Part shown: piece by piece, positions 31,763 through 63,673 of the stretch
Position numbering within the stretch: the first letter of the stretch is position 1
Layout of the letters: each line of letters opens with the position of its first letter
From: a virus
Lineage: Duplodnaviria > Caudoviricetes
Reading direction: 5' to 3' (one strand)
Length of the DNA: 64,000 nt
IMG/VR virus record: IMGVR_UViG_3300035208_002098
Location: 32,001-96,000 of that record
The notes under the pieces: generated by a model
What the model was told of the DNA's origin: nothing
Seen by the model: only the letters and a program-made list of their open reading frames with translations
Databases searched by the model: none
Position numbers and translations under genes: made by a program

Positions 31763-33389
31763 TTATAGTATAATTTTCTGATATATTATCATCTAGTTTT
31801 TTAATACAATCCAATAGCAAATATAGATATTCGAAACTAGAATAATCTAATTCACTTACATTTTCTAGTTGAAACTCAAGAGCTTCTACTACAATACCAT
31901 TACCAGTATCAATGGCAGTAATTAATTTGGTATTACGAAAATGTTGAGCCCAAATATCTGATTTACTTGATTTAAGAGTATACTTAGTTTGTTTAGTCTC
32001 ATTAATTTCTTTTACTATTAGTGTATACGCATGAACACCGGCTGTATCTCTTATATGATATTTACGTTTCATTTGATTCAATATTTAAAATTTTATAAAT
32101 TTCTTTAGTTACTTCTTGATATGTATTATATTTTTTAATTAATAAACCCTCAAATAAGGTATACCAAGGTGAAACATTTTCACCAGTTGGATTATCACCA
32201 TTCATTTCTGGTATTACCTCAAAATATGGGCTATCGTATAGTTTAACTATATTGATGGCCTTTTCTTCCATGTTATCCTCACAAATAAAAATACCCCACA
32301 TTAAATCAGCATAACAATTGGGGTATGGTTGATGGTTTGGCACAAATTTAATTGTTTTAACTAAATTTATTTCTTTAACTTTGAACATTGCGTGTTCACC
32401 AGATAAATCACCAAAAGCTTTTTTACTTCTCTCACACTTTAAAACTTCATATAAAACCTTCGTATCATCAGTCAATAAATGGTCCCCATTCATTATATCA
32501 AAAATATATGGGTTATCATCTATATGGCCGGTAATAAGTATACCGTCAGATGTCGTATGGATAGTGTAATTTTTTATACGGTAGGTTTGCTTCATAATGA
32601 ATTTATATCATCAATAATCGAATTTATTTGTTCAAAACTAATAACATCACCAGTAATTAATGTGTATTTTAAAGATATTTCAATCGTATCAAGCCCATCA
32701 ATATAACTATTATAAATTAGTTTATTGATATGAGTTTCAATCATAAATGCTGGTACAATAATTTCATTTCTTTTCATTTAACAAAGATAAATAAAATATC
32801 TGACAAATGCAACTAAATACTATCTAAATATTTACAAATAGCATTATAAATTACATCAATTTGAGATTCATTCTCACCACTTTTATAAAATAAATTTCGA
32901 ACTTCATTGTCTTTATAGTACCATATCTCACATATAAACCCAAACCGAGTCATATTTAAGCTAAAACCAGATATTTCTTTACTGGAAATAAAATTTAACA
33001 CTTCCATGCACCAAATTAAGTTTTTGTGGAACTCTAATTCCCGGCAAGTTAATTGCCCGTTAAATAATTCTCTAAATGGATTTTCTTTATCATGGAATAC
33101 CCAACGATATGAATTTATCGTTTTACATGGTTCAATTACAGCACCAACAAATTTGGCTATCCTTTCATTATATTTTTTCTTATCTATTTTCATTTTCACA
33201 TATTTTTGTTATTAAAAAATCACGGTACTTTTTATTGTTAGTACCTAAGTAATACCAAAGTTTTTGTCCGTTATCTAATAATTCACAATTAAGACGGCAC
33301 AAAACTTTAATTTTTTTCTTAAGTTTTCTAGGTATTTTAGAATTACTAGGGAAAAATGGTGATATTATTTTTGGTGCTATAAAACTCAT
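31749..33389 (-). other. Hypothetical ORFs (31749-32081, 32062-32595, 32592-32777, 32813-33199, 33180-33389)
   Basis: Overlapping co-oriented ORFs. Confidence 0.55.
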
Positions 33390-59117: not shown

Positions 59118-59149
59118 AAAAAAAGCCCACCAGCGATAGTGGGCTTTTT
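59118..59149 (-). terminator. Intrinsic terminator ending the amber-gated operon
   Basis: AAAAAGCCCAC-TATCGCTG-GTGGGCTTTTTTT. Confidence 0.8.
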
Positions 59150-59156
59150 ATTAATA

Positions 59157-59627
59157 TTAAGCTTTTGGCTTAATGTCCTTAAGAATCTCACCAATTTCAA
59201 CCTTAACTTTCGTTTCAGTTTCTTTTGTATAATTCACTTGAACGTAACTTATAACTTCAGACATCTTACTCTTCATCAATTTAAAGTTTGGTATAGATAT
59301 TTTAGTTCTTTCATATCCCGGAAACATATATGATTTCCATTCATGTACAGCTACTTTAGCAGCTGAAGTATACATACCCTTATCAACTAAATGTTTTACC
59401 ATTTGACTTAATTTAGTTAAATCATATATACTCACATTACATTTTTCACCATTAAATGTTAATTTAATTGCATGTGGTACACCACCAATTTTAACTGTTA
59501 ATACTTTATAAAAATAGTCAGTGTCTTTATTAATAAATAGATGTTGACTTGTTTTTTCGAAATATTTCATTATTTCTTGTCCAATTACTTGTGACTTGTT
59601 TTCTGTTGTTTTTACTATTGTTTCCAT
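59157..59627 (-). CDS. Hypothetical protein downstream of the MK*IYRPP leader
   Basis: Likely start METIVK after an A-rich leader. Confidence 0.7.
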   Translation of the reverse strand: METIVKTTENKSQVIGQEIMKYFEKTSQHLFINKDTDYFYKVLTVKIGGVPHAIKLTFNGEKCNVSIYDLTKLSQMVKHLVDKGMYTSAAKVAVHEWKSYMFPGYERTKISIPNFKLMKSKMSEVISYVQVNYTKETETKVKVEIGEILKDIKPKA

Positions 59628-59744: not shown

Positions 59745-59771
59745 TTATGGTGGACGATATATCTATTTCAT
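59745..59771 (-). CDS. Amber-containing mini-ORF / leader peptide M-K-(UAG)-I-Y-R-P-P
   Basis: ATG AAA TAG ATA TAT CGT CCA CCA TAA, 10 nt after the Pth2 stop. Confidence 0.55.
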
Positions 59772-59781
59772 ATTGGTAAAA

Positions 59782-60135
59782 TTAAAATAATTGTGATTCT
59801 TCTCTTAAAGCTAATGGTAAATTAGATAATAACTTCCTAGATGCTTCCGATGGTTCGAATGAAACAGCTGTAATTTCATTATCAATATCAGGTTCTCTGA
59901 AGATTGAAATGTTAATATTTCTTAAATTTGCTTTGAAAATCAAATCCTCTAAGTGAGATAAATCTCGTGCAGATAAATGTACTAAGTACTTGGATTTGTC
60001 ATGCCATTCTTTGGCGATTTCTGGATGTTCATGTTGGAATTGGATGCCAGCATGAGATAATTGTGGTGATTGATAGTTATATGGTAATGAACCATTAACA
60101 ACCACGTACAGCTTTTTAATCTATGTTTCTTTCAT
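59782..60135 (-). CDS. Pth2-like peptidyl-tRNA hydrolase with in-frame amber codon at position 5 (MKET*IKKLYVVV...)
   Basis: KLYVVV..L...Q..QLSHA, EW...YLV.L, FREPDIDNEITA, LL..LPL. TAG at 60121-60123 is in frame with ATG 60135. Confidence 0.78.
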
Positions 60136-61140
60136 AATGTTTAATTTATTAATTATATTATCTTTATATGTTATTCTTATTAATTTAATACCGTTATCAT
60201 TACAGTAATCAGTCTTTATTTTATCTTTTTTAACCCTATCTTTTAAACCTTCTTCACCACCCCATTCATTAACTACCTCAAAATGTTGTCTACCATCATA
60301 TTCAATACATGTATTTAAATCCGGTAAATAAAAATCAAATGGTAGTACTCTTAAATCAACGCAATTTTCAAATATTTTATATTTTATGAAGTTAATATCA
60401 TTAGATATTAAAAATTTTTTTATTTGTTTTTCACCCTTTGATTCATTACATATTTGGCAGCCAGAACCTCTAAGATGGTAATCAGGTTTCTGTTCAAATT
60501 CACCATGTATTGGACAAATTATCTTAACAGGTATTCTCTTATTTATATAATTAACCAATGAATAATCATATTTATAACCATGGACTAATTCAGCTTTATC
60601 TATAAATGTTTTATTATTATGTTTACACCCACTACAATAAGGGCACCCCGAACCATTTATATGATGAGATGGACTTTGTTCAAATTCACCATGGATTGGA
60701 CATATAATAATAACTTTTTTATGAGTTGTTTGATAGTAAACTTTAGAATAGTCGTATTTAAATTTATGAATATTTTGACTATCAACTATAAATTTAAATA
60801 ATGACTTACGTAAAATATCATTTCTTATTATATTACCACATTTTGGGCAATTACAACCTTTTAAATGATTATTAGGTATCTGTTCAAATTCACCATGAAT
60901 AGGACAAATTATTTTTACCTTAGTACACCAATCGATGTAAGATACTTTAGAATAATCGTATTTGTTATTATGAATTAAATTAGCTTTTTCAATAAAATCG
61001 CACATATTAGAAAATTTATTTATATTAAATAAATATCTAGAATTTTTATAAAACACTGTTTGTACAGCTTCATATTGTTGACCTAAATCTTTTCGGTCTA
61101 CAACGTACAATTTTGATTCTTTTGTAATCTAGTGTTTCAT
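60121..61140 (-). CDS. Free-standing endonuclease (3x DUF723-like zinc repeats plus Vsr/PD-(D/E)XK domain) with Pth2-like N-terminus and amber codon at position 4
   Basis: MKH*ITKESKLYVVDRKDLGQQYEAVQ; 3x KYDYS..Y...KIICPIHGEFEQ.P..H..G..C..C; PFDFYLP....IEYDGRQHF. Confidence 0.8.
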
Positions 61141-61270
61141 AACTTTTCTTTTTTAGTTTATATTAATAAATATGTTACAATTTTAAAAAATAATCCTCAA
61201 CTGCGTTTAACCTCTACAGCATAGTTTTGTATAACGTGGTATTATTTCAAATACCTTGTGAATTATTTCG

Positions 61271-61343
61271 TGTCCCTAATCGGGTTCGAACCGATGCACA
61301 CAGGCTTTTAGAGGGCCCGGCTCTGCCACTGAGCTATAAGGAC
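61271..61343 (-). tRNA. Amber suppressor tRNA (anticodon CUA)
   Basis: GTCCTTA TA GCTC AGTGGCA GAGC C GGGCC CTCTAAA AGCCT GTGTGC ATCGG TTCGAAC CCGAT TAGGGAC A; anticodon at 61309-61311. Confidence 0.85.
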
Positions 61344-61346
61344 ATA

Positions 61347-61764
61347 TTTGGGATAGTGGTTAGCAAGCCACATCTAGAACAATATTCAGTATCTGTTAAT
61401 CACGTGATTTGAACGCTATGCTAGTATCACACTAACCAAATTAACCCAAAATATTGGTGATTACCGCTATAGGCTCTCCCCTGACAACTTGTTTTCCCTA
61501 GTAAGGAATTCTTTAGGTTACTAGCCGGGGGTTCGAATCCTTCCTATTGTTCTAAAATGGTAAGATAACAACCATAGGCTTAATTTGGGAAACACTACAC
61601 TAGCTTTTACCTTTTATTAAGTTGCATCCACCAACCACCCCATCTAGAACTTAGGTCTTGGTCTATCGTATATGTAATTAAATTATGTCACCGATTAATC
61701 ACTTCGGCTAGGTTTTGTATTGACTTGCGGTCCGTCAGACCATTTACTGACACCTTGATTACAT
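61347..61764 (-). ncRNA. Stem-closed non-coding units upstream of the suppressor tRNA (61347-61450, 61454-61634, 61671-61764)
   Basis: Complementary ends tttggg/cccaaa, ttggtg/caccaa, tatgtaat/attacata; repeated CATCTAGAAC at 61371 and 61641. Confidence 0.45.
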
Positions 61765-61828
61765 AATCTAATTACTCTACAAAGATAATTATAATTTTTG
61801 AAAAAAACAAGTGTTTTATCAATTATTT

Positions 61829-62096: not shown

Positions 62097-62846
62097 TTAT
62101 TTTAAAAGATTATCTAAATATTCCTTTGAATTTATCCACATCATGGTTTCAACATCATATACTTCTTCTACATTTTCAATAAATGTTTTTGAATGAGTTG
62201 AAATAATAATTGGTTTACCTGTTTCTTTTAATTTATTTAAATATTTCAATTGATTTCTTAAAGATAATCCTTGTTCTGGTTCATCTAAAAATAACATATC
62301 AAAATCTAAACTTAAAACACCTAATAAAACACCTTCTCTTGTTTCACCATGACTTTCAGCGGCCCACATAAAAATATTATTTACCTCTTGTGCACTATGT
62401 GTAAAACCTTTTTCTGGATTAGGTGTAGTTACTTTAGGGTTGGATTTTTCCATATCAACATTAAAAACCTTTAACCCCTTTAAATTTTCTTTATTAACTT
62501 TAATAAATTGCTTGATTAGAGTTGATTTACCACAACCATTATCACCAACCAATAAGTTTATACCATTTTTTAAAACAAACTCTGTATTCGCTTTATATAA
62601 GGTTTTATATTCACGTGTAATATAATCAAAACTTTCTTTTTTAGTTAACTTTGCTCTTTGAAAAGATTTTAAACCTAATTCTTTAGACTTTTCACTTATT
62701 TTTTTATTCAAACTTCTTTCATCTAACTTTTCATATTTCTTTTCAGTAAACGTATTTTTTCTAATTGGTGAATAATCCCAAGTAGTTTCAATAACATAAT
62801 CTTCTTCGAATTTAATATTTAAGTTTTTCATATTATTTTTTAACAA
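62097..62846 (-). CDS. ABC/SMC-like AAA ATPase
   Basis: GDNGCGKST, SHGE, LFLDEPEQGLS, ISTHS. Confidence 0.85.
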   Translation of the reverse strand: MLKNNMKNLNIKFEEDYVIETTWDYSPIRKNTFTEKKYEKLDERSLNKKISEKSKELGLKSFQRAKLTKKESFDYITREYKTLYKANTEFVLKNGINLLVGDNGCGKSTLIKQFIKVNKENLKGLKVFNVDMEKSNPKVTTPNPEKGFTHSAQEVNNIFMWAAESHGETREGVLLGVLSLDFDMLFLDEPEQGLSLRNQLKYLNKLKETGKPIIISTHSKTFIENVEEVYDVETMMWINSKEYLDNLLK

Positions 62847-63256: not shown

Positions 63257-63673
63257 TTATTTGAGAACATTTTTTACAACACCTGTAATTTGAAACCTTT
63301 CAATTTCTACCCAATTAGTTATATCATTACTCATTACTGGTTTACCACCATCATTTACATTAACTGCGACTGTTATGTGTGGTATTTTATTGTTTGAATG
63401 ATAACCTTCAACTCTAACAGCTAAAGCTTTATTACTTACCCCTCTGTGAGTTACGGTTAATGTAACATTTTTAAATTCATCATCATTGATATTTAAATCT
63501 GCCAAACTTTTACCGAATTGTATTGTCATGTGATGAGCAAATGGTTTCCAACCTTCTGGAACACCAATTTTACTTAATAATATATTATGACTTTCTTCAT
63601 CTAAAACAACAGCACAATATAAGATATTGTTATCATACGATTCCCTTAACTTCTGTTTTATTAGATTTTTCAT
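63257..63673 (-). CDS. 2H phosphoesterase
   Basis: Two HxT motifs: HHMTI and PHITV. Confidence 0.8.
   Translation of the reverse strand: MKNLIKQKLRESYDNNILYCAVVLDEESHNILLSKIGVPEGWKPFAHHMTIQFGKSLADLNINDDEFKNVTLTVTHRGVSNKALAVRVEGYHSNNKIPHITVAVNVNDGGKPVMSNDITNWVEIERFQITGVVKNVLK

Follow-up and report, generated by a model that had tools for sequence, protein, structure and literature searches.

A suppressor tRNA(CUA) ahead of early-UAG frames in a standard-code giant phage: a candidate tRNA-gated translation operon

A giant phage that otherwise uses the normal genetic code carries its own UAG-reading tRNA in front of genes that start with an early UAG stop, and the same design, with stop and anticodon changing together, recurs in over 100 phages. 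These genes are therefore probably made only when the tRNA overrides the stop, although tRNA expression, charging and readthrough were not observed here. The original prediction, made from the sequence alone, described a tRNA(CUA) next to three frames with early in-frame TAG codons, and this observation is confirmed and is not attributable to chance. Its interpretation, in which UAG readthrough sets the synthesis of a Pth2-like peptidyl-tRNA hydrolase as a sensor of termination or a foothold towards full TAG recoding, is only partly supported.

Organization of the apparent operon

The window analysed, a 64,000-nt stretch (positions 32,001 to 96,000 of IMG/VR record IMGVR_UViG_3300035208_002098), lies in a 248-kb phage record of 27.7% GC with about 50 tRNAs and a tmRNA. 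Among these is a tRNA-Gly with an ACC anticodon, unusual in bacteria (G000:C1, 96004-96076, minus strand; G000:C1 denotes genome coordinates). TAG serves as an ordinary stop, terminating 31 of 282 long ORFs, and reading TAG as sense raises the coding density only from 0.79 to 0.82. Genome-wide recoding of the code-15 type was consequently rejected, despite the presence of a CUA tRNA. A repeated TTG-N19-22-TAnnTTTG motif, found 115 times in the genome against 38 times in the reversed control, matches the Bacteroidota promoter consensus, and the host is thus probably of that phylum. One such motif, a putative promoter of the form TTG-N20-TATCTTTG (61780-61810, minus strand), which is also found upstream in the related loci L017 and L018, and a terminator-like hairpin with a 13-bp stem and T run (59120-59149, minus strand) bracket an apparent operon, for which no transcript data were available. 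All features of this operon lie on the minus strand.

The first element is a non-coding stretch of about 430 nt (61344-61772) of unknown function. No Rfam family, folding signal (z -0.37) or exact match in viral contigs was found for it, and its 97-98% identity to the close relative L018 is no higher than that of the coding genes (95-97%), which renders its conservation uninformative. It holds a 59-bp segment (61523-61581) that is inverted relative to L018 between short AGCC/GGCT repeats, the L018 orientation placing a tRNA T-arm-like hairpin on the transcribed strand. A small ABC/SMC-like ATPase gene (62097-62846) and a 2H-phosphodiesterase-like gene with a weak tRNA-ligase CPD hit (63257-63673) lie upstream of the operon, both on the minus strand, while the close relative L017 carries Tpt1-like 2'-phosphotransferase and Sir2 genes downstream of it (L017:9578-10842).

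The tRNA (61271-61343) possesses the loop CU-CUA-AA, a G1-C72 pair, A73 and a short variable arm. ARAGORN, which had been proposed in advance as a check on this element, recovered it, and the Rfam tRNA model scored it at 50.7 bits. ARAGORN labels any CUA tRNA 'Pyl', whereas the best Rfam match is the generic tRNA model with a normal cloverleaf; as the genome was not searched for PylRS, these data leave a pyrrolysine system neither supported nor excluded.

The three frames begin ATG-AAA-CAC-TAG-ATT (61140), ATG-AAA-GAA-ACA-TAG-ATT (60135) and ATG-AAA-TAG-ATA (59771). In a start-site model trained on this genome, their ATG codons score 4.9, 8.2 and 4.0, similar to true starts (mean 4.8) and unlike internal ATGs (mean -5.8), while the ATT/TTG/CTG/GTG codons after the stops score between -3.2 and 1.6. 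A genome-wide scan for a start, an early TAG, a purine-T and a long or PP-ending frame returned these three frames together with five hits that read like antisense or off-frame chance ORFs, as judged by eye without further testing. The TAG-ATW context shared by the three frames is not unique, since one ordinary gene elsewhere in the genome (genome position 209174) ends TAG-ATA. Furthermore, in a correction to the original prediction, the three frames are not three equivalent genes, and frames 1 and 2 are in fact the same reading frame: the TAG at 60123-60121 is both the stop of the 339-codon frame 1 and the gate of frame 2.

Frame 1 (60121-61140) consists of the original first 28 codons of the Pth2-like gene, with TAG at codon 4 (61131-61129), joined to a homing endonuclease (phrog_559, E 1.5e-77). 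Its 5' part matches the start of the uninterrupted gene in L018, and comparison with L018, which lacks the nuclease, places a 999-bp in-frame insertion at 60057-61055 that brought the endonuclease body and a replacement 5' end with its own amber gate. The same architecture is present in five other loci (L020, L025, L026, L052 and L053), involving two nuclease families inserted around the conserved Y-Q-A-V-Q motif, and in all six cases the replacement 5' end is gated and differs at this motif. That the gate is re-supplied each time argues that it is under selection. A scan of viral contigs for the endonuclease returned nothing, the other insertions being found among the loci already collected; this genome has a second copy of the same endonuclease family near 204500-205600. 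Double readthrough could yield a 452-aa fusion. With regard to a self-splicing intron, the insertion gave no Rfam hit and is entirely open frame, but splicing was not tested directly and the matter is not settled by these observations. Homing endonucleases of the free-standing kind also fuse to the 5' end of the host gene and supply a diverged replacement; here, however, the captured start carries a stop-codon gate, and the nuclease's stop doubles as the new gate.

Frame 2 (59782-60135; TAG at codon 5, 60123-60121; 117 aa with readthrough) is the core of the arrangement and encodes a protein with a predicted Pth2 fold. It matches PF01981 at the cut-off (23 bits), and its structural model (pLDDT 95) gives a Foldseek E value of 5e-8 and superimposes on 3erj with Z 16.1 and an rmsd of 1.8 over 107 residues, the archaeal/eukaryotic Pth2 structures 3erj, 1q7s, 2zv3 and 1wn2 giving Z values of 15-16 and rmsd values under 2. 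The catalytic residues of Pth2 are Lys (GK..AQ), Asp (DAG) and Thr. Among 136 relatives, GK occurs in none and DAG in two, while Q-x-x-H, which is shared with Pth2, and E-P-D (132 of 136) are near-invariant; alignment to 2zv3 shows the Lys replaced and the Thr region deleted. The replacement start of this phage also lacks the R-x-D motif, the Arg of which is kept by 135 of 136 relatives, and this copy may thus be impaired. It works like a Pth2-fold tRNA-handling protein at best, and we do not class it as a peptidyl-tRNA hydrolase; hydrolysis of peptidyl- or N-acyl-aminoacyl-tRNA was not assayed.

Frame 3 (59745-59771) is an eight-codon amber-gated leader, M-K-TAG-I-Y-R-P-P-TAA, probably for the following gene (59157-59627), which encodes 156 aa of unknown function. 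This protein gave no usable match in Pfam, the PDB (best Z under 5) or the Atlas, which does not show that its fold is new. Short ORFs of the form M-x-TAG-...-R-x-P-P/T-stop occur in 70 of 136 loci, with RAPP, RGPT, RYPP and KPP variants, and in none on the reverse-strand control; L018 has QPP for RPP. They are mostly positioned 50-130 nt ahead of a 100-170-aa gene from one of about five families, that of this phage following the leader in 23 loci. Across 63 loci, the 3' end of the leader pairs with its own downstream start region at -10.3 kcal/mol, against -5.4 for non-cognate pairs and -6.6 for the best of 10,000 permutations. Relatedness and base composition inflate such a test, and in this genome the pairing is weak (-6.0, rank 14 of 63), so that a stem linking the leader to the start is left undecided despite the strong pairing across the family. 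Where the Pth2-like gene is itself ungated (L009, probably Prevotella phage Lak-B5), it lies just behind a leader-controlled gene and may still be controlled indirectly.

Conservation of the early stop and its coupling to the tRNA

Relatives of frame 2 were collected from viral and metagenome contigs and reduced to 136 below 90% identity; bacterial copies were not examined. Of these, 124 have a start followed by an early in-frame stop (120 TAG, 3 TAA and 1 TGA), which falls at codon 2-5 in 117. The stop lies 0-12 codons before the first strand, and so in a variable, dispensable tail where the inserted residue should not matter. The base after the gate is a purine in 123 of 124 cases, against 74 of 148 ordinary TAG stops in the same loci, a context that favours suppression. 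These loci also employ TAG as a normal stop (150 of 1167 ORFs).

Of 68 TAG-gated loci with at least 3.5 kb of flank on each side, 62 hold a CUA tRNA, and two further genomes have it elsewhere. The strongest evidence for coupling is that the stop and the anticodon switch together: locus L100 has TGA and a UCA tRNA 135 nt upstream, locus L090 has TAA and a UUA tRNA, and the genome of locus L004 has TAA and a UUA tRNA 15 kb away. In the fourth case, Lak-B5 (L186:5341-6297), a lineage reported as TAG-recoded, a UUA tRNA is followed by a TAA-gated RGP leader, a 127-aa gene and an overlapping Pth2-like gene. The TAA rows do not cluster in a quick, weakly resolved tree. Among cultured phages, Catera, Myrna, GAP32, fHe-Yen9-04, Kaldavass, Arash, ME3, RsoM2USA and pT24 are gated, and all nine carry a CUA tRNA, while a pattern search found none in the ungated Mx1, A4, K64-1/RaK2 and S-CBWM1 lineages. 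These counts are small and not independent, the sample having been chosen by similarity to the query and being phylogenetically clustered, and seven of the 12 ungated or unclear loci still have a suppressor tRNA.

The tRNAs share the anticodon loop and a short variable arm but no acceptor-stem or discriminator identity, as expected if any residue will do, and no single charged amino acid could be assigned. In 24 loci (e.g. L007, L056, L068 and L083) there are two CUA tRNAs, often one with pyrimidine-1 and G73 and one with G1-C72 and A73, suggesting two charging identities. Gln at the gate position in database proteins is not evidence of a sense codon, since the two examples examined were TAG read as Q by a gene caller wrongly assuming code 15.

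It was also considered whether translation simply restarts at ATT, GTG or TTG after the stop, or the genes are pseudogenes, with the tRNA an unrelated neighbour. The codon after the stop is ATT in 72 of 124 cases, public annotations start these genes downstream, and some cases (Catera, XacN1 and locus L067) have GTG or ATG directly after the stop. However, many of the next codons are not starts, only 13 of 100 loci have a GTG, TTG or ATG between the stop and the first strand, and these have weak contexts. Together with the co-switching of anticodons, the re-supply of the gate after insertions and a coding sequence that is intact across 40-80% identity, this makes the absence of readthrough very unlikely, and downstream restart was rejected as the general rule. 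Sense codons at the gate in homologues, initiation at a downstream GTG/TTG and a lack of association with CUA tRNAs had been set out beforehand as findings that would overturn the prediction, and none of these sequence-level criteria was fulfilled; tRNA-dependent readthrough, the absence of which was the remaining criterion, was not tested here.

A further possibility is that the short peptides themselves are the point, with minigenes generating peptidyl-tRNA drop-off, as lambda bar does, to tax or probe host Pth, and the readthrough product relieving it. The position of the stops at codons 2-5, the predicted Pth2 fold and the Pro-Pro/Thr-stop ends of the leaders would fit this view. The codon before the stop, however, varies widely (27 different codons), implying that no single tRNA is targeted, and with hydrolase activity unproven this explanation appears improbable.

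A proposed translational switch and its alternatives

The explanation that we favour, with moderate confidence, is a lock-and-key translational switch. In this view, ribosomes start at the real ATG and meet UAG within 3-5 codons. If a release factor wins, only a peptide of 2-4 residues is made; if the co-transcribed suppressor tRNA wins, the ribosome goes on to make the Pth2-fold protein, or reaches the R-P-P-stop end of the leader, where it probably pauses and changes access to the start of the 156-aa gene. Output would therefore track the ratio of charged tRNA(CUA) to UAG-terminating release factor, and the homing endonuclease, having parasitised the gated start, would itself be amber-gated. 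The sequence analysis demonstrates the conservation of the stop, its linkage to the tRNA, the co-switching, the quality of the start sites and the leader-to-start pairing across relatives, whereas the requirement for tRNA-dependent readthrough is inferred, with high confidence. That the purpose is to switch on a tRNA-recycling or ribosome-rescue function when UAG termination is poor is a weaker, tentative inference. A strong suppressor should also read through about 11% of this phage's genes and host UAG stops, which weighs against the model, as do the absence of the Pth2 catalytic motifs family-wide and the weak leader pairing in this phage. No complex prediction was run.

The sensing step rests on logic and on a release-factor gene that many gated genomes lack. 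The same genome has an RF1-type gene (P-x-T motif, GGQ) split by a prfB-like +1 frameshift site with an amber codon, CTT-TAG-C (G000:C1 about 160155-159538, minus strand, outside the window; L223; also L016:5746-6446), in which in-frame readthrough would stop one codon later. This gene would respond to the same condition, and its relatives show CTT-TAG, CTT-TGA or an in-frame TGA. It was nonetheless left out of the system as a separable module, since six of ten genomes searched lacked it and its shift-site stop does not track the gate (the L090 genome has a TAA gate but a CTT-TGA site). Drift towards full recoding is not supported, the gate being stable in code-11 phages and moving to TAA in Lak-B5.

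Two further alternatives accept readthrough but differ as to its purpose. The first is a fixed valve or timer, in which the stop lowers the expression of a harmful product or delays it until the phage tRNA has been made and charged. This fits all the conservation data equally well, and suppressor-timed expression has been proposed by Borges et al. for recoded phages (bioRxiv 10.1101/2021.08.26.457843). A weak start site would achieve this more cheaply, yet the gated ATGs have strong contexts, and the added RxP[PT] leader with an apparent sequestering stem looks conditional; we consider this reading unlikely, though the least unlikely of the alternatives. The second is negative feedback, in which the Pth2-fold protein, or the leader-controlled protein, deacylates, binds or neutralises the charged suppressor, thereby capping readthrough at a harmless level by the logic of prfB autoregulation. 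The adjacency and co-switching of tRNA and gene, and an active-site region that is remodelled but invariant in its own way, which suggests a changed substrate, are consistent with feedback, and it would explain why a suppressor is tolerated in code-11 genomes. It does not say why the tRNA exists at all, the tRNA bodies are too diverse to offer an obvious specific handle and there are no activity data, such that this reading is also doubtful.

Relation to described systems

Literature searches, which did not cover subscription papers, found no description of this arrangement. Every elementary step has a precedent. In stop-codon-recoded phages (TAG read as Gln, code 15; bioRxiv 10.1101/2021.08.26.457843), a phage tRNA likewise reads a stop codon, genes with in-frame stops depend on it and a regulatory use has been proposed. 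In the present genome, TAG remains a stop, only three codons are gated, all near starts, and no fixed amino-acid identity is evident. In prfB (RF2) autoregulation at CUU-UGA-C (PMC5009743), an early stop makes synthesis of a translation factor depend on competition with termination, whereas here the frame continues and a dedicated tRNA supplies the bypass; that review states that in-frame stop regulation of bacterial release-factor genes is unknown, and does not cover this gene.

The leader resembles the RxPP/RAPP arrest leaders ApdA and ApdP in that a short upstream ORF ends in R-x-P-P-like residues just ahead of a regulated gene, and a minimal RxPP motif can arrest translation (PMC10951233). 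It differs in that it is only 6-15 codons long, has a stop immediately after the motif, often ends G-P-T and is reachable only through an internal stop; ribosome stalling on it was not measured. Phage PTH2 has been noted previously in jumbo phages without mention of the stop (PMC7824862).

Reports on the standard-code phages XacN1 (PMC5852040) and Summit (PMC9022506) describe suppressor tRNAs with no known target. The present data offer concrete candidate targets and render the question testable in laboratory phages, such as mycobacteriophages Catera and Myrna on M. smegmatis, and they suggest a natural regulatory use of amber suppression, so far mainly an engineering tool. It is possible, if less likely than not, that this represents a widespread, undescribed circuit in which a dedicated suppressor tRNA is a built-in probe of termination, its competition with release factor at early stops switching on a remodelled Pth2-fold enzyme and, through a stop-gated RxPP arrest leader, a second unknown protein. 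Such a circuit would explain the orphan suppressor tRNAs of standard-code jumbo phages. Summit was not examined here, but in XacN1 the Pth2-like domain of ORF364 (L309:935-1803) is fused behind a domain of roughly 180 aa, and M-K-TAG lies in frame just upstream of the annotated start. As an ATG follows, this case is ambiguous, and ORF364 is a candidate target only. The data also reveal a systematic annotation error, with the gene truncated or missed in GenBank entries for fHe-Yen9-04, RsoM2USA and Arash. In Salmonella phage Arash, the gated gene is annotated as a fragment, and a tRNA annotated as Phe (L311:3801-3875) has a CUA anticodon according to ARAGORN.
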